Source: Saccharothrix sp. (GTDB lineage: Bacteria > Actinomycetota > Actinomycetes > Mycobacteriales > Pseudonocardiaceae). From it: a DNA stretch of 24,000 nt. The position numbers and the translations under genes are program-made. Of the stretch, positions 61 through 15,823 are shown in pieces. Location: assembly GCF_031180885.1 (NCBI RefSeq), contig NZ_JAPSLK010000027.1, positions 4,089 to 28,088 of the forward strand, in the 5' to 3' direction. The notes beneath the pieces were generated by a model, which worked only from the letters and a program-made list of their open reading frames with translations, did no database searches and was not told the DNA's origin. The first letter of the stretch is position 1. The number at the start of each line of letters is the position of its first letter.

Positions 61-1902
61 ATGACCCCGTCAACCAGGCTGACGGCGATCGCGGTCGGCG
101 TGCTCGTGGCGCTGGGCGGTGTTCTCGCCGCGGCGGCTCCCGGCGCGGCACCGGTCCACCCTGTTGTCCTCGCGCAGCCGTTGCCGCTGCCGACGGGTGA
201 CCCGGACCCGTGCGGACCGGGCTCGCCGCTGTGTAGCTTCCCGACACCGACATCGTCACTGTCCACTCCGGTCACGCCGCCGTGCGTCGGCGAGGGCTGT
301 ATCCCGCGACCCACAACACCCACCGCGCCCACGGTGGTCGACCCCGGCCCAGGACAGCCGGGGCACATACCGGAGAACAGCGACGACTGCGGACTCACCG
401 ACATTGGCGCCTGTCTGAGTGAGGCGATCGACGAGTTCTTCCGGAACATCGTCACCGACGCGCTCAACCCGTTGCTGGACCTGGTGGCGCGCACGTTGTT
501 GACCACGACGGTGCCGGATTCGCTGCCCAGGCTGGTCGAGTTGTGGGACAACTCCTGGCACATCCTGCTGGTGTCCTACGGGATGCTCGTGCTGGTCGCG
601 GGCGTGGTGGTGATGAGTCACCAGACGTTGCAGACCCGGCACTCGGTCAAGGAGCTGGCGCCGCGCCTGGTGGTCGGGTTCGTGGCGGGTGCGTTGTCGT
701 TGTGGGTGGCGACCAAGGGCGTGCAGGTCGCCAACGCGGCCGTGGCGTCGATCATGGGTGGCGGTGTCGACGCGGCCACCGCGGCCGAGCAGTTGCGGGC
801 GATGCTGGTCGGGTCGACCACGTCGGGCGGGATTTTCGTCCTGCTGATCGGGATCGTGCTGGCCGGGATGCTGGCGGCGTTGCTGGTCTCCGATGTAGCT
901 CGCGAGGCGGTGACGATCGTCCTGGTCGCCGGGGCGCCGTTGGGGCTGATGTTCCACGCGTTGCCGCAGACCGAGGCCATCGCCTACTGGTGGTGGCGGG
1001 TCTACGGCGGCTGTCTGGCCATCCAGGTCGCCCAGAGCCTGACCCTGATCACCGCCGCGCGGGTGTTCCTGGCACCGGGTGGGTTCACGATTTTCGGGCC
1101 GACCGAGTCGGGCTTGGTGAACATGCTCGTCGCACTGGCGTTGGTCTACATCCTCGTGCGCATCCCGTTCTGGGTGCTGTCGTCGGTGCGCGGCGGCGGC
1201 AGGTCGATGGTCGGTTCGATGGTGCGCAGCCTCATCGCGTTCCGGGTTCTCGGGCTGTTCGGCGGAGCGCGCCGGCACGGCGGAGCGCCCAGGCCGGTGC
1301 CCACCGGGGTTCCCTCCGGTGTCGGCGGTCGAGGTGGTGGGCAGCCGGATCCGCCGTGGCCGGTGACTCCGGTTTTCGCGCCGACTCCGGGGCTGGTGGC
1401 CAACAGGCTGCGGGACGCCTACGACGCCGAACGGGTTCGTGCGGCGCGCCGGTCCCGGGTCCCGTCGCAAGCGCCGCAGTTCCTGCAGCCCCAACCCCAG
1501 CAGACCGTGCACGACCCGGCGGTGACGCCCGCGGTCCCCGTGCCGACGATGCCGGAGTTCAGCGCCGCACCGGTACCCGACGCGCCGCGTGCGAAGTCGA
1601 GCCGACGTCCGCGCTCGACGACGCCGCGGTTCCAGGTCGCCGGAGGACCCCGTCGCCAGAGCGCCGGGCCGCCGGACCGGCCGATCCGTGTGCCCTCGGT
1701 CCCTCCGCAACTGCGGTTCCAGCAGGCCGTCCCCGAACCACCGCAGCCCGCGCCGCCCACGCGGTCGTCGGCACCGGCCGGACCGGTGTTTCGGCCGGAG
1801 CGGGCGGAGCCGCGCCGTGGTGACGCCCTGCGACGGACGCCGTCGGTGCCGCCGCCGCTGTTCCACGCACCCCAGCCCCGCCGAGGAAGCGAGAAGTCAT
1901 GA
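61..1902 (+). CDS. Polytopic conjugation-cluster membrane protein (VirB6/TrbL-like role inferred from position and topology only)
   Basis: 613-aa ORF. N-terminal signal/TM segment (AIAVGVLVALGGVLAAAAPGAA), then a Pro/Cys-rich segment. Several hydrophobic helices follow (ILLVSYGMLVLVAGVVVM, IFVLLIGIVLAGMLAALLV, MLVALALVYILVRIPFWVL), then a long Pro/Arg-rich tail. ATGA overlap with the next gene. First gene of the T4SS-like cluster. Confidence 0.75.
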   Translation: MTPSTRLTAIAVGVLVALGGVLAAAAPGAAPVHPVVLAQPLPLPTGDPDPCGPGSPLCSFPTPTSSLSTPVTPPCVGEGCIPRPTTPTAPTVVDPGPGQPGHIPENSDDCGLTDIGACLSEAIDEFFRNIVTDALNPLLDLVARTLLTTTVPDSLPRLVELWDNSWHILLVSYGMLVLVAGVVVMSHQTLQTRHSVKELAPRLVVGFVAGALSLWVATKGVQVANAAVASIMGGGVDAATAAEQLRAMLVGSTTSGGIFVLLIGIVLAGMLAALLVSDVAREAVTIVLVAGAPLGLMFHALPQTEAIAYWWWRVYGGCLAIQVAQSLTLITAARVFLAPGGFTIFGPTESGLVNMLVALALVYILVRIPFWVLSSVRGGGRSMVGSMVRSLIAFRVLGLFGGARRHGGAPRPVPTGVPSGVGGRGGGQPDPPWPVTPVFAPTPGLVANRLRDAYDAERVRAARRSRVPSQAPQFLQPQPQQTVHDPAVTPAVPVPTMPEFSAAPVPDAPRAKSSRRPRSTTPRFQVAGGPRRQSAGPPDRPIRVPSVPPQLRFQQAVPEPPQPAPPTRSSAPAGPVFRPERAEPRRGDALRRTPSVPPPLFHAPQPRRGSEKS

Positions 1903-2993
1903 GTCAGCCGGTGAGGATTCCCGCCGATGTGGACATGCACGACCGGGTGCTCGGTCCGCTCACCGCCCGGCAACTCGCGATCCTGGCCGCCGCGGGCGCG
2001 GTGCTCTACGTGGTGTGGACGGCCACCGCCGCGATCGTGCCCACACCGGTGTTCCTGGCCTTCGCCGTGCCGGTCGCGGCGGCCGCGGCGATGCTCGCCC
2101 TGGGCAGGCGCGACGGCGTCCCGATGGACAAGTTGATGCTCGCCGCGATCCGTCAACGACTGGCTCCGCGCCGCCGGGTCGCCGCGCCGGAGGGCGTGCA
2201 CCCCGTGCCGGAGTGGCTGTCGGCCAACGCACACGACATCGGGCCCGTCGAGGGACGCACACGGCGGTCGGAACGGGCGTCGTTGTCGGCGCTGCGGTTG
2301 CCGGCGGAGGCGGTCACCGACACCGGTGTCATCGACCTCGGCGTGGACGGGTTGGCGGTGGTGGCGGTCGCGGGCACGGTGAACTTCGCGCTGCGCACAC
2401 CGAACGAGCAGGAAGCGCTGGTCGCCGCGTTCGGCCGCTACCTGCACGGCCTCACCGCCCCGGTCCAGGTGCTGGTGCGCACCGAACGCCTGGACCTCAC
2501 CGCCCAGATCGCGGAGTTGCGCGACCGCGCGGGTGGGCTGCCGCACGCGGCGCTGGAAGCTGCCGCGACCGAGCACGCCGACTACCTCGCCCAACTCGGC
2601 CGGCAGTCGCAGTTGTTGCGCCGCCAGGTCCTGCTGGTGCTGCGCGAGCCGTGGGAGGCGACCGTGCCGACCGACGGGCTCGGCGGACCCGGCCCGCTGG
2701 CGGTGCTCGCGGCGATCGCGGGCAGGCGCCGGGCACGGACCGACACCACGGTCGGCGAGGCCGCGCGTCGGGCGGCGGAGGCGAGGCTGGTGCGTCGGCT
2801 CGGCGAGGCGATCGACCTGCTCGCCCCCGCAGGGATCGTGGTGACCCCGCTGGACGCGGGACAAGCCACCGCCGTGCTGGCCTCAGCGTGCAATCCGGAC
2901 AGCCTGCTGCCGCCCTCCGCCGGGTTGGCCGCCGCGGACGAGGTCATCACCTCGGGCTGGGACGACGACGCCTACGAGGGCGGGCGGTCGTGA
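1899..2993 (+). CDS. PrgI-family / VirB3-TcpE-like conjugation membrane protein
   Basis: The N-terminus MSQPVRIPADVDMHDRVLGPLTARQLAILAAAGAVLYVVW... matches the pattern I recall for actinobacterial PrgI-family proteins (RIPAD..D....GPLTxRQL followed by two TM helices). Start overlaps the upstream stop (ATGA). Stop overlaps the ATG of the VirB4-like gene. Confidence 0.7.
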   Translation: MSQPVRIPADVDMHDRVLGPLTARQLAILAAAGAVLYVVWTATAAIVPTPVFLAFAVPVAAAAAMLALGRRDGVPMDKLMLAAIRQRLAPRRRVAAPEGVHPVPEWLSANAHDIGPVEGRTRRSERASLSALRLPAEAVTDTGVIDLGVDGLAVVAVAGTVNFALRTPNEQEALVAAFGRYLHGLTAPVQVLVRTERLDLTAQIAELRDRAGGLPHAALEAAATEHADYLAQLGRQSQLLRRQVLLVLREPWEATVPTDGLGGPGPLAVLAAIAGRRRARTDTTVGEAARRAAEARLVRRLGEAIDLLAPAGIVVTPLDAGQATAVLASACNPDSLLPPSAGLAAADEVITSGWDDDAYEGGRS

Positions 2994-4858
2994 TGGCCGC
3001 CGACACCGGACCCGCGTCGGGGGCTGCCGCGTTCACGCCCGACGCCTTGTCGGTCGGCGCGCGGCACCTGGAGGTCGGCGGCGAGTGGGTGGCCTCGTTC
3101 GCCGTGGTCGGCTTCCCGCGCGAGGTGCACCCCGGCTGGTTGTCGCCGCTGCTGACCTACCCGGGTCGGCTGGACGTGGCGCTGCACGTCGAGCCTCTCG
3201 ACCCGGCGATCGCCGCGTCCCGGCTGCGCAAGCAGTTGGCCAAGCTGGAGTCCGGGCGTCGCCAGACCGCCGACCGCGGGCGGCTGCTCGACCCGCAGGT
3301 CGAAGCCGCCACCGAGGACGCCTACGACCTGTCCTCCCGCGTCGCGCGCGGGGAGGGGAAGCTGTTCCGGGTCGGGCTGTATCTGACCGTGCACGCCGGC
3401 TCGGAGCACACGCTTGCCGACGAGGTGGCGGCCGTGCGGTCGCTGTGCGCGTCGCTGTTGCTGGACGCCAAGCACACCACCTACCGGTCGTTGCAGGGCT
3501 GGGTGTCCACGCTGCCCATGGGCCTGGATCTCATCGGCATGCGCCGCACGTTCGACACCAGCGCGCTCGCCGCGGCGTTCCCGTTCACCAGCCCGGACCT
3601 GCCCGCCCCCGACCCGACCACCGTCGCCGCGCCGTCCGGGGTGCTCTACGGCTACAACATCGGCTCGCAGGGCCTGGTGCACTGGGACCGGTTCGGCGAG
3701 GGGATGCACAACCACAACAGCGTGATCCTCGGCCGCTCCGGCGCGGGCAAGTCCTACCTGGTCAAGCTGGAACTGCTGCGCTCGCTGTACCGGGGCGTCG
3801 AGATCGCCGTGGTCGACCCCGAAGACGAGTACTCCCGGCTGGCCACCGCGGTCGGCGGCGTCCAGGTCCACCTCGGCGCGGCCGGGGTACGCCTTAACCC
3901 GTTCGACCTGCCCATCCACACCCGAGCCGACGGCCACCGCACCGCCCCCAAGGACGCCCTGGTCCGCCGGTCGCTGTTCCTGGACACCGTCATCGCCGTC
4001 CTGTTCGGCAAGCCGCTGGAGGCCGCTGAACGCGCCGGATTGGACCGGGCGATCGCGGCGACTTACCAGGGCGCGGGTATCACCGCCGACCCGAGGACCT
4101 GGACCCGGCCCTCGCCGACCCTGCGCACCCTGCGGGACCACCTCGCCCGCGGCGACCAGGTCGCCACGAACCTGGCCGCGCGGCTGCACCCGTTCGTCGA
4201 GGGCGCGTTCAAGCAACTGTTCGACGGGCCCAGCAGCGTCACCGCCGAAGGCCACCTCGTCGTGTTCAGCCTGCGCGAGCTGCCCGACGAACTGAAAGCC
4301 ATCGGCACGCTGCTGGTGCTGGACACGGTGTGGCGACGGGTGTCCAACCCGGCCATCCGCCGCCCCAGGTTGGTCGTGGTGGACGAGGCGTGGCTGCTGA
4401 TGCAGGACCGGTCCGGAGCCGAGTTCCTGTTCCGCATGGCCAAAGCCTCCCGCAAACACTGGGCCGGGCTGACCGTCGCCACCCAGGACACCGCCGACGT
4501 CCTGGGCACCGACCTGGGCAAGGCCGTCGTCGCCAACGCCGCCACCCAGATCCTGCTGCGCCAGGCGTCCCAGGCCATCGACGAGATCACCCGCACCTTC
4601 GACCTGTCCGCCGGCGAACGCGCCTTCCTGCTCTCCGCCGACCGCGGCCAAGGCCTGCTCTCCGCCGGGACACAACGCGTCGCGTTCCAAGCCATCGCCT
4701 CCCCGACCGAGCACTACCTGGTCACCAGCGACCCGGCCGAACTCGCCGCCCTCCACGACCCCGACGACCACACCAGCACCTCGTTCGTCGACCTCGGCCT
4801 CGACCCGCAGGACGGCGACGAGTCCGAGGACGACCAGATCACCCTCGACGCCGCGTGA
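2993..4858 (+). CDS. VirB4/TraE-like conjugative transfer ATPase
   Basis: 621 aa starting at the ATG at 2993 (an in-frame GTG at 2990 is also possible). Walker A VILGRSGAGKSYLVK; Walker B PRLVVVDEAWLLM. Sits between the PrgI-like and coupling-protein genes. The 1589-4858 ORF in the track is an upstream over-extension of this frame. Confidence 0.85.
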   Translation: MAADTGPASGAAAFTPDALSVGARHLEVGGEWVASFAVVGFPREVHPGWLSPLLTYPGRLDVALHVEPLDPAIAASRLRKQLAKLESGRRQTADRGRLLDPQVEAATEDAYDLSSRVARGEGKLFRVGLYLTVHAGSEHTLADEVAAVRSLCASLLLDAKHTTYRSLQGWVSTLPMGLDLIGMRRTFDTSALAAAFPFTSPDLPAPDPTTVAAPSGVLYGYNIGSQGLVHWDRFGEGMHNHNSVILGRSGAGKSYLVKLELLRSLYRGVEIAVVDPEDEYSRLATAVGGVQVHLGAAGVRLNPFDLPIHTRADGHRTAPKDALVRRSLFLDTVIAVLFGKPLEAAERAGLDRAIAATYQGAGITADPRTWTRPSPTLRTLRDHLARGDQVATNLAARLHPFVEGAFKQLFDGPSSVTAEGHLVVFSLRELPDELKAIGTLLVLDTVWRRVSNPAIRRPRLVVVDEAWLLMQDRSGAEFLFRMAKASRKHWAGLTVATQDTADVLGTDLGKAVVANAATQILLRQASQAIDEITRTFDLSAGERAFLLSADRGQGLLSAGTQRVAFQAIASPTEHYLVTSDPAELAALHDPDDHTSTSFVDLGLDPQDGDESEDDQITLDAA

Positions 4859-4878
4859 ACCCGTTGGAGGGCAACGTC

Positions 4879-6919
4879 ATGTTTGAGGACTACCTGCGCG
4901 ACCCCTCCGGAGCACTGGCCACCGTGCTGGACCGGCTCCGCGACCTCGCGCTCACCCACGGCCCTATCGCGGTCCCGCTGCTCGTCGCGCTCGCGACGCT
5001 GTTCGTGATCGGACGGCGGTGGTGGGCCCGTCGCTGCCACGAGCAGTTGGTGGCCGACGCCCGCCAGGTCACCATCCTCGCGCCGCCCGTCGTCGACGCC
5101 GCGAGCGGGGCGGCGTTGTGGTCCAACCTGGTCGGCCTGCTCCGGCCCGGGTGGCGCAGGGCAGTCACCGGACAGCCGCACCTGGCGTTCGAGTACGTCT
5201 TCTCCGAGGCCGGGGTCACGATCCGGCTGTGGGTGCCCGGTGTCATCCCGCCAGGGCTGGTCGAACGCGCAGTCGAAGCCGCCTGGCCCGGCGCCCACAC
5301 CCGCGTCGGCCCCGCCGAACCACCACTCCCGCCAGCAGGACAAGACCAACGCCGAATCGTGGTCGGCGGGGAACTGCGGCTGGCGCGACCGGAAGCCCTA
5401 CCCATCCGATCGGCGTTCGACGCCGACCCGATCCGCGCGCTGCTCGGCGCACCGGTCGGACTGGGGCGGGACGAACACGCCTGCGTCCAAGTCCTGGCCC
5501 GGCCCGTCACCGGCCGCCGGGTCCAACGCGCCCGCCGCGCCGCCCGTCGAGTCCACAATGGAACGTCAAGCCATATGGTTGGCCGTCTGCTCGACCTGCT
5601 TACACCCGGCCCTACCCGGCGTCGACACCGCCCCGCGTGGACCCGGACCGGCGCGTTGCACAGCGACCCGCAGACTTCCCTGGAATTCTCCGCGCACAAC
5701 CGCGCCATCGTCACCAAGCAACGCGGCAGCCAGTACGAGACCGTCATCCGCTACGCCGTCGCCACACTGCTCCCCGCCAACACCACCAAGGAGCAACTGC
5801 GCCAAGCCCGAGACGTCGCGCGCGGCCGGGCGCACGCGTTGGCCGCCAGTTTCGCCTCCTACACCGAGCACAATCACTACACCCGACACCGCCTCCGCGA
5901 CCCCGGCCACGCGCTCGGCCACCGCAGGCTCGGTCGTGGAGACCTGCTGTCGGTACCGGAACTGGCCGCCCTCGCCCACCTGCCCACCGACGAGGCCATC
6001 CCCGGCATCCAGCGCGCCGGAGCCCGCGCCGTCGCACCGCCACCCGGTGTCGCCGTACCGGGCCCGGAGGCCAAACCGATCGGTGTCACCGACACCGGAC
6101 ACCACCGCCCGGTCGCCCTGCGCGTGCCCGACGCCCGACACCACCTGCACGTCCTGGGCGCCACCGGCTCCGGCAAGTCCACCCTGCTGGGCACCATGAT
6201 CCTGGCCGACGCCGAAGCCGGCCGCGGCATCGTGCTCATCGACCCCAAAGGCGACCTCGTCACCGACGTCCTGTCCCGCCTGCCCAGCACGGCCGCCGAC
6301 CGCGTAGTGCTCTTCGACGCCGACAGCCGCTCCCGCCCACCCTGCCTCAACCCCCTCGACGGCGGCGACACCGACCTCACCGTCGACAACCTCGTCAGCG
6401 TCTTCCGCCGCGTCTACTCCGCGTTCTGGGGACCGCGCACCGACGACGTCATGCGCGCCGCCTGCCTCACCCTGCGCGCCCAGGAAGGCGTCGCCACCCT
6501 CGCCGACCTGCCCAAGCTGCTGGCCGACGACGCCTTCCGCACCCGCGTCACCGCCGGCATCACCGACCCGGTCCTGCGCGGCTTCTGGTCCTGGTACGAC
6601 GAACTCACCGACTCCACCCGCAGCCAGGTCATCAGTCCGCTGATGAACAAACTCCGCGCCTTCCTGCTCCGCCCCTTCGTCCGCGACGCCATCGCCGCCG
6701 GGCCCTCCACAGTGGACATGAGCGCGGTGCTCGACGGCGGCATCTGCCTCGTCCGCATCCCCAAAGGCTCACTGGGCGAGGAGACCACCCGGCTCGTCGG
6801 CTCACTCGTCGTCGCCCGCACCTGGCAGGCCACCACCGCCCGCGCCCGCGCCCGCACCCCACAACGCCAACGCCGCGACGCCTCACTGGTCATCGACGAA
6901 TGCCACAACTTCCTCAACC
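4879..6919 (+). CDS. Type IV coupling protein (VirD4/TraD-like), exon 1 (interrupted by group II intron)
   Basis: GGAGGG lies 7 nt before the ATG at 4879. N-terminal TM segment (IAVPLLVALATLFVIG). Walker A HVLGATGSGKSTLLG, VLIDPKGD, Walker B SLVIDECHNFLN. Coding ends at C6919, immediately before GTGCG. Read-through gives only RAA*. Confidence 0.85.
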
Positions 6920-7590
6920 GTGCGGCCTGAAAGTCGCTTGTAGCCAGTGAATTACCAGAGAGGACAAGGTGATTCCCCGCCCCGTGGTCAAGGTAGGGCG
7001 GGTCTCCTAGGGCGAATGCGGGACTGGTAACGGACCCGTGTTAAGCCGCCTGACACGAAGCCCCAAGAGCTGGTGGACCATCACCGGCCACAGGGCAAGG
7101 AGAAGATCTGAAGGACGAACGCAAGTGAACCCTCGATGAGGCCTCGTGAAAGTTGACCCGCGCCAATGGTTTGTAGTCGGCGGGAAGGGCCCGGAGCTGT
7201 GAGGCTCAGGTGGCAACGGAGGGCGATTTTCCTTCGTTGCGTGACCACCACCGGTCCCGGGGTAAAGAGGGCGTCCTCCCAGATCGCAACTGGCACAAGC
7301 GGAACAGGACAACCCTGTAGAGGTCCAGGACGGATGCGCCCTGGTAAGCCGACGGCAACGGAAGCCGAAACCCTCTGCGGGCGAAGGAAGACCCGAGAAG
7401 CGAATGCCGCTGGGGCGAAAGCCCAGGGGAAAACGCGGACCAAGGCACCTCAGCCTCCGCGCATAACCCGGCGGATACCGGGACTGTGTTCCCGGGCCCG
7501 AAAGGGAGCCCACGCGGGTCTGGTGGGCCTGTGAAGAACCGAAGCAAGAAGCCGGAACCAGCGCCGGAGTTGGATACCGAAGGAGGAGAA

Positions 7591-9375
7591 GTGGCACACC
7601 AAGTCGACACGACCCAGGAGTCCCCGATCCTTCCCGAGGGGAACCAAGCGCTGGACGACGCACGGTACTGGCACAGCATCGACTGGGCCACCACCGAGCG
7701 GACCGTACGGCGACTGCGGCAGAGGATCTTCACGGCGTCGCAAGAAGGGGACCTGAAGAAGGTCCGTAATCTCCAAAAGCTCATGCTGCGCTCGCACTCC
7801 AACACGCTCGTGAGCGTGCGGAGCGTGACACAGCGGAGCCTGGGACGCCGCACCCCTGGGGTAGACGGGGAAATCGTGCTGCGGCCAGAGGACCGGGGAC
7901 GGCTGGTGAGGACACTCACCGAGAAGCCCCGGCCCACGGCCCGGCCGGTGCGGCGTGTGCACATCCCGAAGGCGAACGGGAAGACCCGTCCGCTCGGTAT
8001 CCCGGTCATCCGGGACCGAGTGCAGCAGACCAGGGTGAAGAACGCCCTGGAACCTGAGTGGGAGGCACGGTTCGAGGCACGGAGCTACGGCTTCCGGCCC
8101 GGACGCAGCTGTCATGACGCGATCGCCGCGATCTTCAATTTCGCGGCAGGTAAGAAGTCCCGGCGACGCTGGGCTCTGGACGCGGACCTGACAGCCGCCT
8201 TTGACCGGATCAACCACGATCGTCTGATGGAGGCCATCGGGGGATTCCCGGCTGCGGCCGAGATCCTGCGCTGGCTCAAGGCCGGTGTGATGGAAGACGG
8301 GCGGTTCGCCCCGACCGAAGAGGGAGCCCCTCAAGGCGGAGTGATCAGCCCACTGCTCTTGAACATCGTCCTCCACGGCATGGGGACCGCTGCCGGGGAC
8401 CGTGAAGACGGCACCGCCCGGCAACGCTGGGTGCAGTGCGCCCCGGCGTTCATCCGCTACGCCGACGACTTCGTGGTGCTGTGCACCACCAAGGAAGAGG
8501 CCGAGCAGGCGAAGCAACGGCTTGCGGCCTGGCTGGAACCGAAGGGGCTGACCTTCAACGAGGACAAGACGCGCATCGTCCACCTCGACGACGGTTTCGA
8601 CTTCCTCGGGTTCAACGTCAGGCGCTACAACGACAAGCTGCTGATCAAGCCGAGCGATGCAGCGGTGAAGAAGGTCAAGGACAAGGTCCGGGACACTGCG
8701 AAACGGATGCGCGCGGCCACGTGCGCAGACGTCATCCGCACCCTGAACCCCTTGATCAAGGGATGGTCGACCTACTACAGGGGCGTGGCCTCCGCGGAGA
8801 CCTTCACGACCCTGGACCACTACGTGCACTACCGCATGTACAGGTGGGCCAAACGCAAGCACCACAACAAGTCGGTGGCATGGATTCGCGCCAGCTACTT
8901 CGGGTGCTTCAACCCGACACGGCAAGACGTCTGGGTCTTCGGAGACAAGGACACCGGGCGGTACCTGTACCGGTTCGCATGGACCCACATCGAGCGACAC
9001 GCCCTGGTCACCGGGCGGGCGTCGAAAGACGACCCAGCGCTTGAGGGGTACTGGAAGGCACGCATCCGGAAGCGCAAGCATCCAGAGGCTGACAAGCGCA
9101 ACCTGTCGCTGGCTGCCAAGCAGAAGGGGCTGTGCCCACTGTGCGGACTGGACCTGATCGCCGGAGCCGGCTACGAGCCCCAGTCCGTCCGTGAATGGGC
9201 GGCCTGGTTCTGGGCCAACTCCCGCACGATCAACAGGCACCACCTGGTCTTCAAATCCCAAGGCGGCTCGGACGATCGCGCCAACCTCATGCTCATCCAC
9301 TCGGAATGCCACCGGCAGTACCACGCCCGGAGCATTCTCGAAGGAACCCAGGAGATCCCGAATGCGCGTCCATAG
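7591..9375 (+). CDS. Group II intron-encoded protein: reverse transcriptase / maturase / HNH endonuclease
   Basis: RT motifs RPLGIPVIRDRVQQ, SYGFRPGRSCHDA, GAPQGGVISPLLLNI and YADDFVVL. Maturase-like X region (LNPLIKGWSTYYRG). C-terminal HNH (CPLCG...HHLVFKSQGGSDDRANLMLIHSECHRQYH). I prefer the GTG at 7591, preceded by AGGAGGAG at 7581-7588. The ORF track starts this frame at 7486. Confidence 0.9.
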   Translation: MAHQVDTTQESPILPEGNQALDDARYWHSIDWATTERTVRRLRQRIFTASQEGDLKKVRNLQKLMLRSHSNTLVSVRSVTQRSLGRRTPGVDGEIVLRPEDRGRLVRTLTEKPRPTARPVRRVHIPKANGKTRPLGIPVIRDRVQQTRVKNALEPEWEARFEARSYGFRPGRSCHDAIAAIFNFAAGKKSRRRWALDADLTAAFDRINHDRLMEAIGGFPAAAEILRWLKAGVMEDGRFAPTEEGAPQGGVISPLLLNIVLHGMGTAAGDREDGTARQRWVQCAPAFIRYADDFVVLCTTKEEAEQAKQRLAAWLEPKGLTFNEDKTRIVHLDDGFDFLGFNVRRYNDKLLIKPSDAAVKKVKDKVRDTAKRMRAATCADVIRTLNPLIKGWSTYYRGVASAETFTTLDHYVHYRMYRWAKRKHHNKSVAWIRASYFGCFNPTRQDVWVFGDKDTGRYLYRFAWTHIERHALVTGRASKDDPALEGYWKARIRKRKHPEADKRNLSLAAKQKGLCPLCGLDLIAGAGYEPQSVREWAAWFWANSRTINRHHLVFKSQGGSDDRANLMLIHSECHRQYHARSILEGTQEIPNARP

Positions 9376-9385
9376 TGGCCTGCTT

Positions 9386-9461
9386 GAGCCGGATGCGGTG
9401 AAAGCCGCACGTCCGGTTCTGAGGGGGCTCTCGACCCGAGAGGGTCGTGGAGCTACCCGAC
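9386..9461 (+). ncRNA. Group II intron domains V and VI (catalytic hairpin and branch-point helix)
   Basis: GAGCCGGAUGCGGUGAAAGCCGCACGUCCGGUUC is a 34-nt domain V with the AGC triad, a GAAA loop and a 2-nt bulge. Domain VI pairs CGACCC with GGGUCG around a GAGA loop and has an unpaired A at 9455. Confidence 0.85.
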
Positions 9462-9880
9462 TGCCCTACCCGATCGAGGACATGCTCGCCGAAGCCCGCG
9501 GCTTCCGCCTCGCCATGACCCTGGCCCACCAACACCTCGGCCAACTCCCACGCGAACTCCGCGAAGGCATCTCCACCAACGCCCGCAACAAGATCTTCTT
9601 CAACGCCTCACCCGAAGACGCCCGCGAACTGGCCCGCCACACCACACCCCGCCTGACCGACCACGACCTCGCCCACCTCGGCGCCTACCACGCCGCCACC
9701 CGCCTGGTCCTGCACGGCGAACAAACCCTGCCCTTCACCCTGCGCACCCAACCCCTCCCACCCGCCATCCCCGGCCGAGCACGCGAAATCCGCACCACAG
9801 CACGACACACCACCCACACCACCCAACCCACCCGCGTCGAACCCGCCACCCGCCCAGCCGACCCACGCCGCCACACCTGA
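9462..9880 (+). CDS. Type IV coupling protein, exon 2
   Basis: The frame continues as (L)PYPIEDMLAEARGFRLAMTLAHQHLGQLPRELREGISTNARNKIFFNASPEDARELAR..., which is the conserved T4CP C-terminal region (xEARKxxxxxxxAxQxxxQL). Ends at TGA 9878-9880. Confidence 0.85.
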
Positions 9881-9904
9881 CCCCGCCGCACCGGAGGTCC
9901 CGAC

Positions 9905-10921
9905 ATGATCACCAACCCGACCCGGCAACGCGCCCTACGCGGCCACAAACCCACCAGGCCCACCCCACGCGCCGCCAACACCGTCGAACACCAGGCCGCC
10001 CTGGCCTGGCGGCTCACCCCGCGCGACAAGTGGATCGCCCGCATGCTGTGGGAACACCGCGTCCTCACCGCGCACCAGATCACCGCCCTGGCCTTCCCCA
10101 GCTTCCGATCCGGACGCCAACGGCTGCGTGAGCTGTACCTGTGGGGCGTGGTCGACCGCTTCCAGCCCTTCGTCACCGTCGGCACCGCACCCATGCACTA
10201 CGTCCTTGCGCCCGCCGGAGCCGCTGTCCTCGCCGCCGAAGACGGCCTGGACGTCAAAGAACTGGGCTACCGCCACGACCGCGCCTTCAGCATCGCCCAC
10301 AGCCTGCGCCTGGCCCACACCGTCGGCGTCAACGAATGGTTCACCGCCCTCGTCGACCGCGCCCGCCACCCCCAACCCGGCCAACACCTCGAACTCACCG
10401 CCTGGTGGTCGGAAACCCGCTGTGCCCGCCACTTCGGCGACCTCGTCAAACCCGACGCCTACGGCCGCTGGCGAACAGAAGACAACGAGATCGAATGGTT
10501 CCTCGAATACGACTTCGGCACCGAAGCCCTCCCCAAACTCGCCGGCAAACTCACCGGCTACGCCGCCCTCGCCCAAGCCACCGGCATCACCACCCCACTG
10601 CTGGTGTGGCTCCCCACCACCCGCCGCGAAGCCACCGCCCGACGACTCCTCCACACGACCTGGCGCGAACTCGACAACCCCCACCAACTCCCCGTCGCCA
10701 CCGCCGCAGCCCAACTACTCGACCCCACAACCCCACACCCCAGCCCCGCCGACAACGTCTGGCTACCCCTCGACACGCCCGGACGCCACGCACTGCACGA
10801 ACTACGCCACGTCTGGCCCCACATCCCACCCCCGACCACCACACCACTCACCCACGACACCACCCCGCCACGGCCAACCCCACCGTCCCCGATGCCGCCC
10901 ACCGCACCAGGACACGGGTGA
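9905..10921 (+). CDS. Replication-relaxation family protein (putative DNA-processing protein of the element)
   Basis: GGAGG lies ~8 nt upstream of the ATG. Sequence LTPRDKWIARMLWEHRVLTAHQITALAFPSFRSGRQRLRELYLWGVVDRF...VKPDAYGRW...EWFLEYDFGTE matches my recollection of the Replic_Relax family. Pro/Thr-rich tail. Confidence 0.75.
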   Translation: MITNPTRQRALRGHKPTRPTPRAANTVEHQAALAWRLTPRDKWIARMLWEHRVLTAHQITALAFPSFRSGRQRLRELYLWGVVDRFQPFVTVGTAPMHYVLAPAGAAVLAAEDGLDVKELGYRHDRAFSIAHSLRLAHTVGVNEWFTALVDRARHPQPGQHLELTAWWSETRCARHFGDLVKPDAYGRWRTEDNEIEWFLEYDFGTEALPKLAGKLTGYAALAQATGITTPLLVWLPTTRREATARRLLHTTWRELDNPHQLPVATAAAQLLDPTTPHPSPADNVWLPLDTPGRHALHELRHVWPHIPPPTTTPLTHDTTPPRPTPPSPMPPTAPGHG

Positions 10922-11928
10922 GCCCGGTGTTCACCAAACTCGCCATCGGCGGCACCGCAACCCTGCTGCTCATCCCCGTCGTCCTCGGCCTGGCCACCAC
11001 CGCCGTCGTCGACTCCCTCTTCCGCCGCACCCCCACCGGCACCATCGACTGCACCACCCCGATCGCCGACATCCCACCCCACTACTGCCTGCTCTACGTC
11101 ACCGCCGCCCCGCACTGCCCCGGCCTCGACTGGACCGTCCTCGCCGCCATCGGCAAGATCGAAACCGACCACGGCCGCCTCAACGCACCCGGCGTCCACG
11201 AAGGCGAAAACCACGCCGGAGCCGCCGGCCCCATGCAGTTCCTCGCCCTCACCTTCAACGCCGTCACCGCCGCCCACCAGATCCCACCCGGCGGCGCCAC
11301 CCCACCCTCCCGCTACAACCCGCACGACGCCATCCACGCCGCCGCCTTCCTCCTGTGCGACGAAGGCGTACGAGAAGGCGACCTCCACAAAGCGATCTAC
11401 GCCTACAACCACGCCGACTGGTACGTCACCAAGGTCATCGACCAAGCACACGCCTACGCCCAAGCCGCCGCAGCCCACACCGGCACCGGCGACTGCAACA
11501 ACATCCACGCCCCGAACACCATCGCCCACACCGCCATCAACTACGCCTGCGGCATGCGCGGACTCCCCTACGTCTGGGGCGGCAACGGCCCCGACGGCGG
11601 CCACACCGGCTTCGACTGCTCAGGCCTCACCAAAGCCGCCTACGCCGCCGCCGGCCTCACCCTCCCCCGCACCGCCCAAACCCAACACGACGCAGGCCCC
11701 CACGTCCCCGCCGGACAACCCCTCCTCCCCGGAGACCTCGTCTTCTACGGCACCCCAGGCAACATCCACCACGTCGGCCTCTACATCGGCAACGGCCTCA
11801 TGATCGACGCCCCCGACTTCGGCCAAGTCGTCAAAATCGAGCCCTACCGCTACGCAGGTGACGACTACGCCGGCGCCACCCGTCCGGCAGGCGCCGGTGT
11901 AGCGGCCGCGGGTTACGGCTGGACCTGA
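10918..11928 (+). CDS. Secreted/membrane-anchored bifunctional cell-wall hydrolase (lytic transglycosylase-like + NlpC/P60)
   Basis: GTG start overlaps the upstream stop (GTGA). N-terminal TM segment (LAIGGTATLLLIPVVLGLATTAVV). SLT-like region (LDWTVLAAIGKIETDHGR...GPMQF). NlpC/P60 region (YVWGGNGPDGGHTGFDCSGLTKAAY...GDLVFYG...HHVGLYIGNGLMIDAP). Confidence 0.85.
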   Translation: MSPVFTKLAIGGTATLLLIPVVLGLATTAVVDSLFRRTPTGTIDCTTPIADIPPHYCLLYVTAAPHCPGLDWTVLAAIGKIETDHGRLNAPGVHEGENHAGAAGPMQFLALTFNAVTAAHQIPPGGATPPSRYNPHDAIHAAAFLLCDEGVREGDLHKAIYAYNHADWYVTKVIDQAHAYAQAAAAHTGTGDCNNIHAPNTIAHTAINYACGMRGLPYVWGGNGPDGGHTGFDCSGLTKAAYAAAGLTLPRTAQTQHDAGPHVPAGQPLLPGDLVFYGTPGNIHHVGLYIGNGLMIDAPDFGQVVKIEPYRYAGDDYAGATRPAGAGVAAAGYGWT

Positions 11929-12108
11929 TCATTCAACGTTGTGCCACGTGGCGTTTCCATGCTTGCCTATGGTTCGGCGATCTCGACGCACCGTAGGCCG
12001 AGCAGTTCGCACAGCACGGATATCGCCCTCTCGGCCTGACCTGAGCGTCTCGAGTGCTGGATATTGAATCCCAACCTATTCGTAGCTCGTTGCGGGACGC
12101 GGTCAGCT

Positions 12109-13038
12109 TCAGCTTCCAGAACGGGGCACTCGAACGCGTCGTTTAGCAGTCGAGTAGTCACCTGCAAGTTGTCCGCAATTTAGGTTGTCATTGGCCAACG
12201 AATAGAAGTGGTAGGCATCAAAACCCATCCGTCTCGCAACACCTGCCAGGCGTTCAACTGTCGCGATATCGGGTGTGGCGAGCTTGTTGCGAACGCTAGC
12301 AGCGGTCTCGTTCATTCTCGACACTCGAACGACGCACTTGCCTGCCAGTCCTTCAAACAGCTTTAACGCCGCGACAAAGGTTTCGTCGCTGCTATTGAAG
12401 TCGCGGATCACCACATAGTTGAGCCTAAAGGTGAGATTCGTGGTCGTCAGCATAGCTGAAGCAATATCTTCAACGCGATACCCGGCAGGCTTCCCCATCC
12501 GCATAATTGAGTGAACTTTGCTGGAATTTGCATGAAGGAGGCTTACCTGAACGTACTTCAGCTCGACTTCCTCCGCCAAGGACTCCATGTGGGCAAATAG
12601 GTCCGGACGGAGACCCACGGTGGTTAGGTTGAAATAGCACTGTGGGAAGTCGATAGAGATTGCCTTCGCTGATCTTTCAACGGTCGCTCGCATCAGCGAA
12701 GCCTCACCGATGCCGGAGTATGTAAAAAGGAATCGCGAACTCCGAGGCAAGGATTGGTCCTCTGTCACGAATTTGGCGATATCATGCACCTCCGTGTGCG
12801 CCAAAGCTTCATGGGTACCGAGTTCGGTAGCCGCGCAGTGGTGGCACCCCACAGCACATCCGTAGCTCGTGGGAAGCTCTACCACATCTTTAACATAAGT
12901 GTCGTCTAGGAAGTGTCGAAAGTGCGAAGCCTCGACGATCTTGCCGCCGACGTCGACGACATACCGTGTAGCTTCTTCGCGATTCCAACCTCGTGTAGAG
13001 TAGTTCGTTGTCGCCTTCATTCTTTGCACGATCTCCAT
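12109..13038 (-). CDS. Radical-SAM enzyme, minimal RlmN/Cfr-like (no N-terminal accessory domain)
   Basis: 309 aa with CX3CX2C at C61/C65/C68 (SYGCAVGCHHCAA; nt 12835-12858). The C-terminal NCGQLAGDYSTAKRR resembles E. coli RlmN ...AACGQLAGDVIDRTKR, recalled from memory. Colinear blocks: VDVGGKIVEA~AVGDQRVET, NLTTVGL~TLSTSGV, VSLLHANS~ISLHAPN, RLNYVVIRDFNSSDE~TIEYVMLDHVNDGTE. GCGAGG lies ~8 nt before the ATG. Low-GC codon usage. Confidence 0.8.
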   Translation of the reverse strand: MEIVQRMKATTNYSTRGWNREEATRYVVDVGGKIVEASHFRHFLDDTYVKDVVELPTSYGCAVGCHHCAATELGTHEALAHTEVHDIAKFVTEDQSLPRSSRFLFTYSGIGEASLMRATVERSAKAISIDFPQCYFNLTTVGLRPDLFAHMESLAEEVELKYVQVSLLHANSSKVHSIMRMGKPAGYRVEDIASAMLTTTNLTFRLNYVVIRDFNSSDETFVAALKLFEGLAGKCVVRVSRMNETAASVRNKLATPDIATVERLAGVARRMGFDAYHFYSLANDNLNCGQLAGDYSTAKRRVRVPRSGS

Positions 13039-13052
13039 GGGGGCCTCGCTAG

Positions 13053-13823
13053 TCAGAATTGCTTGGATTTTCCTCGCAGGGACGTAATATCGGTGACAAC
13101 ACTTCGTGCAAATGGCGAGTTGTGATCGAATGAAAGATGTACGACATCCTTGCTATCTTCGACGTGAAGATATGGGGTAAAGTCCAGTCCAGCGTCTGTA
13201 ATAATCGCCATATAGTAGGGCTCGACATCCTCTGGTAGATATCGAAGATCAATCCGACTGCGGACGCGAGATGGAAGTGAATCGCGAAACGCGACTAAGG
13301 CTTGGGCTGTTCGTTTTGTTTTCGAAGCATGATCGCGGCCGCACATTTCCTGGATACGCCTCTGAGCGGTACCGTTGGGGGCTAGCAGCAGGAAGCAGAC
13401 GTCCCCTCCGTTGCGGGCAACACGTCCAATTGCAGACTTAAAAAGCGCTTGGTACTCTGGCTTTAACCAGCTTTGTAGGCTGTGTCCCATAATTATTAAC
13501 CGGCCATTGGTGCCCTGCATTAGGCGATTCCAGTAATCAGGCTTGTCGGAATACTTTCCGTCGACTCGAAGTGCGCCTGTACGTGCCCTGATGTCAGCGA
13601 GGGCTTCAAGCTCTAAAAGCCGATCAATGATCTCTCTTTGAGCGCCAAACTCGCGACTGTTCAATGCGACCCAGATTAGCGACGCCATTAAGCTTGATAT
13701 CGCGCCACTCGCCAGAAGGAACCCAAGCGATGATCGAGATGTGGCGAGTCCGTAGCCGAGGAGTATGAGGCAAGCAACAACGAATGCTACGTAGACCAGT
13801 CGTCTATTCACCCACCACCACAT
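13053..13823 (-). CDS. Membrane protein: two N-terminal TM helices + ~190-aa cytoplasmic alpha/beta domain of unknown function
   Basis: 256 aa. TM1 is LVYVAFVVACLILLGYGLA and TM2 is LGFLLASGAISSLMASLIWVAL, followed by a helical linker (REIIDRLLELEALADIRA). The soluble domain alternates hydrophobic strands (RLIIMGHSL, DVCFLLLAPN, YYMAIITDAGLDFTPYL). Ends 14 nt upstream of the radical-SAM gene, with the same low GC. Confidence 0.7.
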   Translation of the reverse strand: MWWWVNRRLVYVAFVVACLILLGYGLATSRSSLGFLLASGAISSLMASLIWVALNSREFGAQREIIDRLLELEALADIRARTGALRVDGKYSDKPDYWNRLMQGTNGRLIIMGHSLQSWLKPEYQALFKSAIGRVARNGGDVCFLLLAPNGTAQRRIQEMCGRDHASKTKRTAQALVAFRDSLPSRVRSRIDLRYLPEDVEPYYMAIITDAGLDFTPYLHVEDSKDVVHLSFDHNSPFARSVVTDITSLRGKSKQF

Positions 13824-14183
13824 TTACTGTCGCTGTGATGTTGCCCACAGGGTGAGTCTACACTATCCTGTGATCACTTTCTAGTGAAACATCGAATCAT
13901 CTGTATTTCGTTGCATGCACCCGCCACTGAAGTGCGCCAGAGATACAATTATCTGCATTGAGTTTAGCGGCATGGGTGGCACGATTGTCCCCTGCTGTTA
14001 CGTGCAAAGCTGCTGTGTCGAGTCGGTCAATATGGACACGTATGCGGCGAGTACTCAAGCATTCCTGAAAGTGCTCAAGTTCGAGTGGAAGCTACATGTA
14101 GCTGTCGCTTCCTCGCCGATGTGAGCACTTCCGTGTGGACATGAGGCATTGTTCGCGCGTCGAAGCCGTTCCGGTCCGTGCGT

Positions 14184-14935
14184 TCAGGCTGCCGGACGCT
14201 GGCTGGCGAGTATCGCAAGGCTGAGGAGCACCGTTGCGCCGATCACCGCGACCACGGCCAGCCCGGCGGTGAAGCCGTGCCCGCGCTGGACGAAGGTGCC
14301 GGTGCTGCCGAGCACCACCACGCCGAGTGCCAGCCCGAACTCCACGCTGGTCTCGGACAACGCCGATGCCGCACCGGCCCGGTCTGGTGGCGCCGCGCTG
14401 ACCACGCTGTCCATGCTCAGCGCCATCACCGGCCCCAGGCCGAGGTAGATCAGCACGAGTCCGGCGACCAGCGGCGCGACCCCTGGTCGTCCGGGGTCCG
14501 GGCCAGCACGGCGAAGCCGACTGCGGACACCGCCAGTGACCACACCAGCAGGCGGTGGACCGGGATCCGGCGGGCCAGTGCGGGTGCCGCCATTGAGGTC
14601 AGGACCATCGCCACGGCGGAAGGCGCCACCCACAACCCGGCCCTGATGGGGGACAGCCCCGCCTGCTGCTGGAGGTAGAGCGCGGCGAACAGGTAGACCC
14701 CGGCGACGCAGGCGAGCGCGGCGAGCAGGACCAGCAGCGCGTCGCGGAACGGCCGCGCGGCGAACAGTCGGAGGTCGAGCAGCGGCAGGCTCAGCCGCCG
14801 CTGCCGGCGCAGGAACACGACCCCGGCGCCGCGCTGGCGCGGATCGCGGAACATGCTGCCGATCAGCGCGAGTGTGGACGGCATGAGCGTGGTGCCGGTG
14901 ATGCCGAGCAGCCCACGGGCGCTGGCGCAGGCCGA
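14184..14935 (-). pseudogene. MFS (DHA2/EmrB-QacA-like) transporter remnant: 5'-truncated, internally deleted and frameshifted
   Basis: MFS-like peptide is split over two frames. One frame reads ...ARGLLGITGTTLMPSTLALIGSMFRDPRQRGAG | LPLLDLRLFAARPF...GLSPIRAGLWVAPSAVAMVLTSMAAPALARR...AVGFAVLARTPDDQG. The other reads VAPLVAGLVLIYLGLGPVMALSMDSVVSAAPPDRAGAASALSETSVEFGLALGVVVLGS...*. The shift maps to the CCCC run at 14480-14483. No N-terminal TM1-3 coding is present. Confidence 0.7.
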
Positions 14936-15226
14936 TGCCGCCGCGATTGACGACATCGTCCGGTTGGAAGGGCACCACACCGAGCCGTCCACGCACCGGT
15001 GTTCGCCGGGCAAGGCACGGCTGGCGGAAGAATTACCAGTCAATGGTTTGTGTCGCGTGAGCGTCCACAAGAGACGATCCGGCGATCTGTTGAGGGCCGA
15101 CTTGACTTCACACCCGCAAGGAAGCGTTCATAGTCCTGCGGGCTGATTCGACACCGGGTGCGCGCCGGGCCCGTAGCTCCGGCCGGGGCATGACCATTCG
15201 CGGTATCACGACGAAGCGAGGCAGTC

Positions 15227-15823
15227 ATGTCCACCTACAGCAACACCGATGGTGCGAAGCCGTCGGCCACCGAGAAGGCACACGGGCGAACCGAAGCGGA
15301 GGACAAGCTGTGGCAGGCGATGCTGGACAAGCCGGGCAGCACCGCCGCCGAACTGTCGGCCGCCGCCGGTATCGGCAAGTCCACGGCACCGAAGATCCTC
15401 ATGCGCTGGCTCGAAGCGGGACTCGTCACGCGCATGTCCGGTATCGCCGACGGAGGACGCCGGGCAGCCGACCGCTGGTCCATCCAGCCGGGCGAGGAGG
15501 GGCAACCGGCCGACGAATCGCCCGCTGAGGTGCAAGATAGCGACGCTGCCGTGGAAAGCATCTCTTCAGATGACACGGAGGCGTCGAAGCGATTGGCACC
15601 CGGAGCGCTGCGAGGGATGGTCGAGGACTACTTGCGCGAACACGCCGGGGAGGCGATCAGCCCCAACGGGATCGGCAAGGCGTTGCGGCGTTCCCCGGGC
15701 GCGGTGGCGAACGCCTTGGAGAAGTTGGTCGCGGCTGGCTACGCCGTGCGCGTGAGCGACAAGCCCAAAACCTACGCGATCACTCGCGCCGACGGCGACG
15801 CCGTCGAGACGTCGAGGCAGTAG
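15227..15823 (+). CDS. DNA-binding protein with two winged-helix (MarR-like) modules
   Basis: GCGAGG lies ~7 nt before the ATG. Module 1: LWQAMLDKPGSTAAELSAAAGIGKSTAPKILMRWLEAGLVTR. An acidic linker follows. Module 2: LRGMVEDYLREHAGEAISPNGIGKALRRSPGAVANALEKLVAAGYAVRV. I recognise this architecture as common on actinomycete plasmids/ICEs. Confidence 0.7.
   Translation: MSTYSNTDGAKPSATEKAHGRTEAEDKLWQAMLDKPGSTAAELSAAAGIGKSTAPKILMRWLEAGLVTRMSGIADGGRRAADRWSIQPGEEGQPADESPAEVQDSDAAVESISSDDTEASKRLAPGALRGMVEDYLREHAGEAISPNGIGKALRRSPGAVANALEKLVAAGYAVRVSDKPKTYAITRADGDAVETSRQ

Follow-up and report, generated by a model that had tools for sequence, protein, structure and literature searches.

How does a radical S-adenosylmethionine (SAM) enzyme of the RlmN type complete its reaction when a carboxylate stands where the product-releasing cysteine is expected? 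The question is raised by an enzyme encoded in a 24,000-nucleotide stretch of Saccharothrix sp. DNA (assembly GCF_031180885.1, contig NZ_JAPSLK010000027.1, positions 4,089 to 28,088 of the forward strand), referred to below as the window, whose own numbering we use for its features. The enzyme is the second gene of a two-gene cassette, the first of which encodes a membrane protein of an unnamed family, here called the partner. To our knowledge, no class A methyl synthases other than RlmN and Cfr have been characterised, and the two-cysteine mechanism of this pair is the textbook case. In RlmN, SAM methylates C355, a 5'-deoxyadenosyl radical removes a hydrogen atom from the methylated cysteine and the resulting methylene radical adds to adenine C2 (PMC5130265). 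A second conserved cysteine then resolves the covalent adduct, and its replacement in the C118A variant abolishes the product and traps the cross-link (PMC5130265; PDB 5hr6, 5hr7). In a preprint, the product-yielding deprotonation step is assigned to Cys118, and the corresponding general base of the class C methylase NocN/NosN is given as a carboxylate (PMC12871812).

We propose, as a reading that we hold to be about evenly balanced, that the Saccharothrix enzyme would be the catalytic half of an undescribed mobile two-gene conflict system, likely anti-phage, in which a carboxylate base would support methyl-cysteine chemistry on an adenine nucleotide. What appears to be new here is the occurrence, in a previously undescribed conflict cassette, of a radical SAM enzyme that is class-A-like but substituted at a catalytic residue.

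The assignment of the key positions is the basis of this proposal. An earlier note on this DNA, aligned by eye, had placed Glu54 at the position of RlmN Cys118 and matched the NCGQLAGD motif around C288 to the context of Cys355, and formal alignments confirmed both placements. The landmark cysteines of E. coli RlmN, taken from NC_000913, are C118, C125 and C355, and their counterparts in the enzyme are E54, C61 and C288. The critical strand aligns without gaps (DVVE54LPTSYGC61 against ATLC118VSSQVGC125 of E. coli RlmN), and the seven residues that separate E54 from C61 equal the offset between C118 and C125. A single-sequence phmmer search against the Protein Data Bank (PDB) aligned E54 with C122 of 6fz6, and the pairing of E54 with Cys118 was reproduced by a 20-sequence family profile, by hmmalign and by MAFFT. 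At the other end of the protein, C288, within DNLNCGQLAGDY, pairs with the C355 motif AACGQLAGD in the phmmer, profile and MAFFT alignments, all of which match DNLNC288GQLAGDY of the enzyme to DIDAAC355GQLAGDV of RlmN. The cluster motif has the spacing C61-x3-C65-x2-C68, and the methyl-carrier cysteine follows the first cluster cysteine at a distance of 227 residues, compared with 230 in RlmN. Motifs of the SAM-binding type are also present (SGIGE; conserved Q164, N207, N215, N243 and T245). The remaining cysteines C134 and C235 are not conserved in the family.

The same comparisons define what the enzyme lacks. The earlier note had counted 60 residues ahead of the first cluster cysteine, against about 124 in E. 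coli RlmN, and from these numbers had supposed that the N-terminal accessory domain was missing. The open reading frame (ORF) and NC_000913 give exactly 60 and 124, and the NCBIfam RlmN model TIGR00048 aligns enzyme residues 24-297 with profile positions 82-349, so that its first ~80 positions have no counterpart and the absence of the domain is confirmed. Ahead of the core, the AlphaFold2 (AF2) model of the enzyme (predicted local distance difference test score, pLDDT, 91.6) contains strands at residues 2-14, 20-30, 33-44 and 47-54, which form a four-stranded sheet (2-54). The glutamate of the RlmN VET motif, in the strand before the core, aligns with E36 of this sheet.

Profile and fold comparisons both place the enzyme in the RlmN/Cfr lineage of class A methyl synthases. 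When the family profile was compared with the PDB, the leading matches were RlmN (E 2e-17), Cfr (2e-13) and E. coli RlmN (1e-11), and the next family, the pyruvate formate-lyase activase PFL-AE, followed at 0.008. Foldseek with the enzyme model returned ten RlmN chains on top (6e-17 to 2e-12, TM-score 0.68-0.74, ~290-317 columns), then PFL-AE at 9e-9 and Cfr at 2e-7, consistent with a partial TIM barrel like that of RlmN and PFL-AE. The concern that the CGQL match might be coincidental is thereby removed, since, among characterised families, RlmN/Cfr gives the best match in sequence as well as in fold, with a lead of many orders of magnitude. The enzyme passes the general radical SAM model PF04055 only narrowly (30.4 bits against a gathering score of 29.5). 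It falls below threshold for the RlmN models TIGR00048/NF008396 (30.2 bits against a curated cutoff of 290) and for the Cfr models TIGR04432/NF000424/NF011024 (20.7-23.6 bits against cutoffs of 468-550); other acid-type clades, that is, those with Glu or Asp at position 54, score 43-96 bits with the RlmN model. With 30 bits against a curated cutoff of 290, the enzyme is by these scores RlmN-like and not an RlmN. Public annotations call its relatives 'radical SAM protein', 'hypothetical protein' or, automatically (JGI), 'RlmN'.

RlmN itself, the C2-methyl synthase of 23S rRNA A2503 and tRNA A37 (PDB 3RFA, 5HR7, 6FZ6), has the core fold, the position of CxxxCxxC and the CGQL loop in common with the enzyme. 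It differs in carrying Cys118 where the enzyme has Glu/Asp, and in possessing ~60 N-terminal residues (the accessory domain) that are missing here. It is also a universal housekeeping gene, whereas the enzyme is paired or fused with a membrane PLD-like protein in defence islands. The Cfr and Cfr-like C8 methyl synthases, often found on mobile elements, share the lineage and the motif pair, but Cfr has retained its N-terminal domain and its two cysteines; an equivalent of Cys118/Cys105 is lacking in the enzyme. Class A radical SAM methylases are defined by two conserved cysteines outside the cluster motif; the enzyme has the methyl carrier only, with a carboxylate at the resolving site, and may thus work like a class A methylase although it stands outside the class definition as written.

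Is the glutamate an accident of this one sequence? An exhaustive hidden Markov model (HMM) search over 1.84 billion cluster representatives (50% identity clusters) returned 124 representatives at E <= 1e-30, 733 at <= 1e-10 and 3155 at <= 1e-3. A word-indexed protein search had given only 21 enzyme relatives, an under-count relative to the HMM search, and genome and metagenome scans yielded 2 and 9 loci, respectively; the family is rare and patchy in its distribution. The best 150 HMM matches and the first set of 21 relatives were aligned to the family HMM. In this alignment set, position 54 is E in 112 sequences, D in 25 and C in 7. Among the 155 acid-type representatives it is acidic in all 137 that are alignable there (112 E, 25 D). 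In these representatives C61, C65, C68, C288 and G289 are 100% conserved, Q290 reaches 98% and L291 97%. Over the whole alignment set, 151 of the 152 representatives that can be aligned there have CGQL. The next-commonest cysteine column after C61, C65, C68 and C288 stands at 27%, which upholds the earlier note's remark that no cysteine lies near the resolving position. The 21-relative alignment gives the same picture, with E54, C61, C65, C68 and C288 invariant and no further invariant cysteine.

The RlmN/Cfr signature xCxS[ST]Q.GC is present in the seven sequences that have a cysteine at this position; apart from the fragment P0120, these score among the lowest. In a neighbour-joining tree (calculated without support values) they group, again except P0120, with E. 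coli RlmN, apart from the acid-type clades. P0120 is a 263-aa fragment with an RlmN-type NTVCISTQVGC, yet its remainder clusters with a Glu-type clade that bears a MazG domain; reversion, recombination or chimeric assembly could explain this fragment. Judged from these alignments, Glu54 is an invariant, clade-defining substitution and not a one-off loss or lesion. A pseudogene or decayed RlmN was considered and ruled out: the ORF is intact, the cofactor motifs are invariant, and homologues down to 31-37% identity retain these motifs.

It is worth noting that loss of the N-terminal domain is not specific to the acid-type clade, because short RlmN-like proteins of phages share this loss and keep both cysteines. 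These COG0820 proteins of ~300-320 aa (Pseudomonas phage 201phi2-1 B3FJU2, Salmonella phage Arash gp133c and Vibrio phage 166E36-1) lack the domain and retain CGQL. Unlike the enzyme, which is acidic at the resolving position, they have a cysteine there (e.g. VMCISTQTGC), and no PLD-like partner is annotated in their 300-bp flanks. The phage copies (L026 247-1206, L028 256-1182 and L030 328-1257; OR529408, OZ196864 and OQ632216) are ~310 aa long with both cysteines. One of the phage copies is mis-annotated as 'prohibitin family protein', and the Vibrio phage copy adjoins a nicotinamide phosphoribosyltransferase gene. No match to the enzyme came up when phage and plasmid collections were searched with tblastn.

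The second component of the cassette is the partner. The 14-nt spacer between its stop codon and the enzyme ATG, with its GAGG, points to one operon for both genes. The partner lies directly upstream of the enzyme gene and is co-oriented with it in 19/19 enzyme-homologue loci (~12 distinct sequences), and in 13 representative clusters it is fused N-terminally to the enzyme (~440-600 aa; partner HMM E 1e-38 to 1e-19). A word-indexed search under-reported the partner, with 4 matches in each of two runs. The protein consists of two hydrophobic helices, a long helical linker and an alpha/beta PLD-like domain. On the Kyte-Doolittle scale, with 19-residue windows, its hydropathy rises above 1.6 at residues 4-12 and 32-36, and the AF2 model (pLDDT 80.5 overall, mostly 85-96 in the PLD-like domain) contains helices at 2-27 and 32-82. 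Public gene calls are shorter, at 203 aa in Saccharothrix and 211 aa in Lentzea (P0023, P0022), and start inside the membrane region. The 256-aa ORF that includes transmembrane helix 1 is 84% identical between Saccharothrix and Lentzea, and all other homologues carry the helices. Three metagenome loci deviate: in L014 (344-682) and L018 (944-1282) the partner ORF is 112 aa only, truncated or frameshifted, and in L017 (1622-3375) a C-terminal partner piece is in frame with the enzyme in a 371-aa ORF. These odd partners may be decaying copies or assembly errors.

Foldseek matched the partner domain to the C-terminal domain of TrmBL2 (8e-7), the pseudo-PLD domain DUF1669 of FAM83 (1e-5) and Nuc (4e-5), and also to NucT and PLD3, in a range extending to 1e-3. 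It was this fold comparison that identified the domain; a profile of it found no sequence-level match in the PDB, and Pfam PLDc_2 appeared in one partner homologue, at E 0.017 only. The catalytic HKD motif, HxK(x)4D, was not found in the partner, where the sole candidate, H114 (GHSL), varies to R, Y or K in homologues. Because HKD is absent and the candidate histidine variable, the domain is probably a binding or sensing module, for a ligand or nucleic acid, rather than an enzyme. W, W and F of the core are invariant in the partner, which has no conserved cysteine, the highest cysteine column reaching 13%. The possibility that the partner supplies the resolving cysteine in trans was ruled out on this ground. 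In the lineage of L005, P0024 and P0025, the membrane helices are exchanged for a soluble ~130-aa domain and the PLD-like domain is kept; swapping of N-terminal modules is typical of effector modules. The soluble domain had seemed TIR- or deoxyribosyltransferase-like by eye, but it has no PDB or Pfam sequence match and we leave it unnamed.

The cassette appears, from its DNA, to be horizontally mobile. Its GC content is 52.5% against 69.7% for the window, and it is below that of the flanks in 7/7 loci tested. DNA homology to the Lentzea alba locus is confined to window positions 12170-13839, with enzymes that are 77% identical. In the Lentzea locus the cassette adjoins DpdD (9e-210), DpdJ (E 0) and an OLD-type ATPase-TOPRIM. 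PDC-S73 (2e-132), GmrSD and DUF3800 are near the cassette in locus L004, a dGTPase-like HD protein adjoins it in L017, and HepT/MNT adjoins it in L007 and L008. What is found at these loci is thus a conserved operon that recurs beside known defence genes in unrelated genomes, the generic mark of a defence cassette.

The associations of more distant relatives bear on the substrate. A P-loop (d)NMP-kinase-like third gene lies directly downstream, overlapping or adjacent, in loci L004, L011 and L005; the L005 gene matches Thymidylate_kin at 8e-12 and is followed by a metallo-beta-lactamase (MBL)-fold gene, and the L004 and L011 matches are weak. In more distant acid-type clades, some relatives are fused to an N-terminal MazG nucleotide pyrophosphohydrolase. 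Locus L023 (4562-9900; also L024 and L025) contains a three-gene operon of an LmuB-like SMC ATPase (474 aa, 4e-39), a MazG-x-radical SAM fusion of the Glu type (608 aa) and a PNP-family effector (686 aa; PDC-M60C 4.5e-26), with a CD-NTase gene nearby. The ~200-aa middle region of the MazG fusion has Cys-rich, zinc-ribbon-like stretches. Asp-type relatives (P0148, P0163 and P0162; L022 247-2667) are fused C-terminally to a complete Thoeris ThsA, consisting of SIR2 and SLOG/STALD (PADLOC ThsA1 E 7e-26, model positions 6-431 of 478). In these fusions the radical SAM domain occupies the place expected for the signal-making partner. Since the kinase, MazG, PNP, SIR2 and SLOG modules are all nucleotide-centred, and the N-terminal domain of RlmN is lost, a free purine (adenine) nucleotide is most probably the substrate class, rather than rRNA or tRNA.

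Taking these observations together, the enzyme would operate as follows. A first SAM would methylate Cys288, and a second would be cleaved at the C61/C65/C68 cluster to give the 5'-deoxyadenosyl radical, which would take a hydrogen atom from methyl-Cys288. The thiomethylene radical so formed would add to an sp2 carbon of the substrate. The carboxylate of Glu54, or of Asp in other clades, would then act as a general base and deprotonate the attacked carbon, the role of Cys118 in RlmN, after which the C-S link would break and the C-methylated product would be released, so that the enzyme could turn over without staying cross-linked. The strict conservation of E/D supports such a chemical role at position 54. 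The product could be sensed by the PLD-like domain of the partner, which would switch on the membrane effector, or could itself be toxic to phage replication. A more specific version, which we hold as a tentative and rather doubtful extension, is that the enzyme would C-methylate an ATP-, NAD- or ADP-ribose-type nucleotide on infection as an immune signal, with PLD-like or SLOG sensors that would set off effectors of the membrane, NADase or PNP type. In view of the ThsA fusions, a role in nucleotide signalling is conceivable.

The earlier note had left three outcomes for an enzyme without Cys118, namely another resolving residue, a different substrate or chemistry, and a stable adduct. The first is favoured over the last by the invariant E/D at position 54, and a different substrate and biology is favoured by the obligate two-gene cassette in defence islands. 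The stable adduct, in its strongest form, is a suicide cross-linker: the adduct would never be released, the enzyme would work once, tethered through Cys288 to phage or host nucleic acid or a nucleotide, and the adduct would itself be the defence output. RlmN C118A traps just such an adduct (PMC5130265), PDB 5hr6 and 5hr7 are among the top fold matches, and neither the enzyme nor the partner has a conserved cysteine available. A dead-end enzyme would nevertheless need no acidic residue at position 54, and acidity in 137/137 sequences across very divergent clades indicates selection for a chemical role, so that we think this explanation unlikely. A weightier alternative, possible though we incline against it, is that the target is nucleic acid. 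Adenine would be C-methylated in RNA or DNA, either in phage nucleic acid at the membrane or in host rRNA or tRNA as abortive infection, and the PLD-like domain would replace the N-terminal domain of RlmN. RNA is the target of every characterised relative, the PLD-like fold resembles that of the nucleases Nuc, NucT and PLD3, the fusions put both domains in one polypeptide, and a membrane anchor would place the enzyme where the genome enters. Yet the best PLD-fold matches, the TrmBL2 C-terminal domain and FAM83, are non-catalytic and HKD is absent; the exchange of the partner's N-terminal module is typical of effectors and not of substrate-binding subunits; and the kinase, MazG, PNP and SLOG links of the wider clade point to free nucleotides.

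The substrate might instead be the partner itself, a peptide or a small-molecule metabolite, with the enzyme serving as a maturase or biosynthetic methylase and the cassette producing either a natural product or a membrane effector that has been modified. That the enzyme is so strictly paired, and in places fused, with a single protein would suit this explanation, as would an actinomycete host rich in secondary metabolism; in the HXS defence system, radical SAM enzymes are reported to mature the effector (PMC13128918). We consider it quite improbable: no precursor-peptide-like ORF is present, the enzyme has neither a SPASM domain nor a recognition domain for ribosomally synthesised and post-translationally modified peptides (RiPPs), the partner has no invariant cluster suggesting a modification site apart from the core W, W and F, and the wider clade associates with nucleotide enzymes. 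Even less credible, and in our view extremely improbable, is that the gene encodes an ordinary RlmN, or that it is a mobile-element gene for an antibiotic-resistance rRNA methyltransferase of the Cfr type. Homology to both families, the adjacent conjugation genes and the JGI label 'RlmN' on some relatives speak for it. The low scores with the RlmN model (30 bits, cutoff 290) and the Cfr models (21-24 bits, cutoffs 468-550), the lack of a Cys118/Cys105 equivalent and of the N-terminal domain, the obligate membrane partner and the rare, patchy distribution speak against it.

Several points weigh against our proposal of a carboxylate-based conflict system acting on nucleotides. The second cysteine of RlmN has also been proposed as a redox partner of C355; a carboxylate is incapable of such redox pairing and would not account for the extra electron or thiyl radical. 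Part of the evidence for nucleotides was drawn from distant sub-clades (MazG, ThsA), whose substrates may differ, and the window's own cassette has no kinase. The partner-enzyme fusions fit a substrate-binding or anchoring role of the PLD-like domain at least as well as a sensor role, and nucleic-acid binding by PLD-fold proteins such as Nuc and PLD3 would speak for a substrate of that kind. The neighbour-joining tree carries no support values. PADLOC-DB 2.0 has no match for the enzyme or the partner, and a full-text literature search, with most subscription journals outside its reach, found no paper linking RlmN/Cfr-type enzymes to defence. More broadly, no Pfam, NCBIfam, PADLOC or PHROGs model names the enzyme clade or the partner, and the radical SAM part of eight diverse enzyme relatives had no PADLOC match.

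The only radical SAM defence systems retrieved from the literature were Ophion and HXS, both of other lineages. Ophion was considered as the same system and rejected, its radical SAM enzyme being viperin-like and its operon different. Prokaryotic viperins (pVip) are also radical SAM enzymes found in defence islands, sometimes followed by a nucleotide kinase. Viperin belongs to a different radical SAM lineage, however, and is not among the enzyme's top fold matches; pVip chemistry is a dehydration, whereas the chemistry proposed for the enzyme would proceed through methyl-cysteine, and the enzyme has an obligate membrane partner. By architecture only, the closest two-gene logic is that of Pycsar (PycC with PycTM or PycTIR) and Thoeris (ThsB with ThsA), in which an enzyme is likewise combined with a protein whose effector module is exchangeable and whose sensor-like domain stays constant. 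The enzymes of those systems are a cyclase or a TIR protein, and here a radical SAM enzyme stands beside an HKD-less PLD-like putative sensor. The link to Thoeris extends to the distant acid-type relatives fused to complete ThsA.

Within the window, the cassette lies at the edge of a conjugative block (1589-11928). The features are collected in the table below. The complete group II intron ORF sits between the conjugation ATPases and the Replic_Relax gene. On the other side, remnants of a major facilitator superfamily (MFS) transporter in two frames (168 and 90 aa in public calls) adjoin the low-GC cassette, and the MFS gene may have been disrupted by its arrival. Further on, a STAND-type NTPase, for which no PADLOC match was found, adjoins a regulator gene and could be an NLR-like defence gene or a regulator. 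About 40 nt upstream of the partner start lies an imperfect palindrome, CACTATCCTGTGATCAC / GTGATCACTTTCTAGTG, which may be an operator. In a consensus scan, the sole match to a sigma-70-type promoter was inside the enzyme ORF and none lay upstream of the partner gene; no terminator was found in the cassette region. No flanking direct repeats define the cassette borders, and there is no tRNA anywhere in the window.

Features of the window around the radical SAM cassette, with the basis of each assignment
Feature	Position	Strand	Basis
Radical SAM enzyme, 309 aa, RlmN/Cfr-like core without N-terminal accessory domain	12109..13038	(-)	intact ORF; PF04055; PDB profile; AF2; Foldseek
CxxxCxxC [4Fe-4S]/SAM motif, C61, C65, C68	12835..12858	(-)	direct reading; all three 100% conserved in family
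Glu54 codon GAG (ctc on + strand), RlmN Cys118 position	12877..12879	(-)	ungapped alignment to E. coli RlmN and 6fz6
N287-C288-G-Q-L291 motif, C288 equivalent to RlmN C355 methyl carrier	12166..12180	(-)	alignments
Cys288 codon TGC	12175-12177	(-)	direct reading
Family-specific N-terminal four-stranded beta region, residues 1-54, near-invariant E36 and H42	12877..13038	(-)	AF2 and conservation
Partner protein, 256 aa, unnamed family	13053..13823	(-)	Pfam, NCBIfam, PADLOC and PHROG scans without match
Two predicted transmembrane helices of partner, residues ~4-54	13662..13814	(-)	Kyte-Doolittle, AF2
PLD-like alpha/beta domain of partner without HKD, residues 84-252	13068..13574	(-)	Foldseek
Spacer from partner stop to enzyme ATG, 14 nt, GAGG 6 nt before ATG	13039..13052	(-)	sequence reading
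Low-GC island with two-gene cassette	11950..14150	(.)	about 52% vs about 70% GC
Imperfect palindrome	13861-13886		
TraC/VirB4-like ATPase	1589-4858		
DUF87/FtsK-like coupling ATPase	4330-6930		
Group II intron protein (RVT_N, RVT_1, GIIM maturase domain, HNH), complete ORF	7486-9375	(+)	
Replic_Relax protein	9905-10921		
Secreted SLT + NlpC/P60 hydrolase	10141-11928		
MFS transporter remnants	14184-15070	(-)	
TrmB/MarR-type regulator, adjoins STAND NTPase	15227-15823	(+)	
STAND-type NTPase (AAA_16/NACHT-like) with TPR repeats, 740 aa	15843-18065	(-)	

The acid-type clade offers a natural test of the role of the second cysteine, as a base or as a redox partner, and of non-RNA substrates in this lineage. 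Its cassette is a candidate defence system whose catalytic core had no earlier link to immunity in the literature that we found, and the ThsA, MazG, LmuB/PNP and kinase associations suggest a family of radical-SAM-driven nucleotide chemistry in conflict systems. Such enzymes may yield modified nucleotides, as signals or chain poisons, and enzyme tools for the C-methylation of purines. If the product does serve as a signal, the family would provide an immune second messenger of a new chemical class and, within the class A methylases, a catalytic solution that is itself new.

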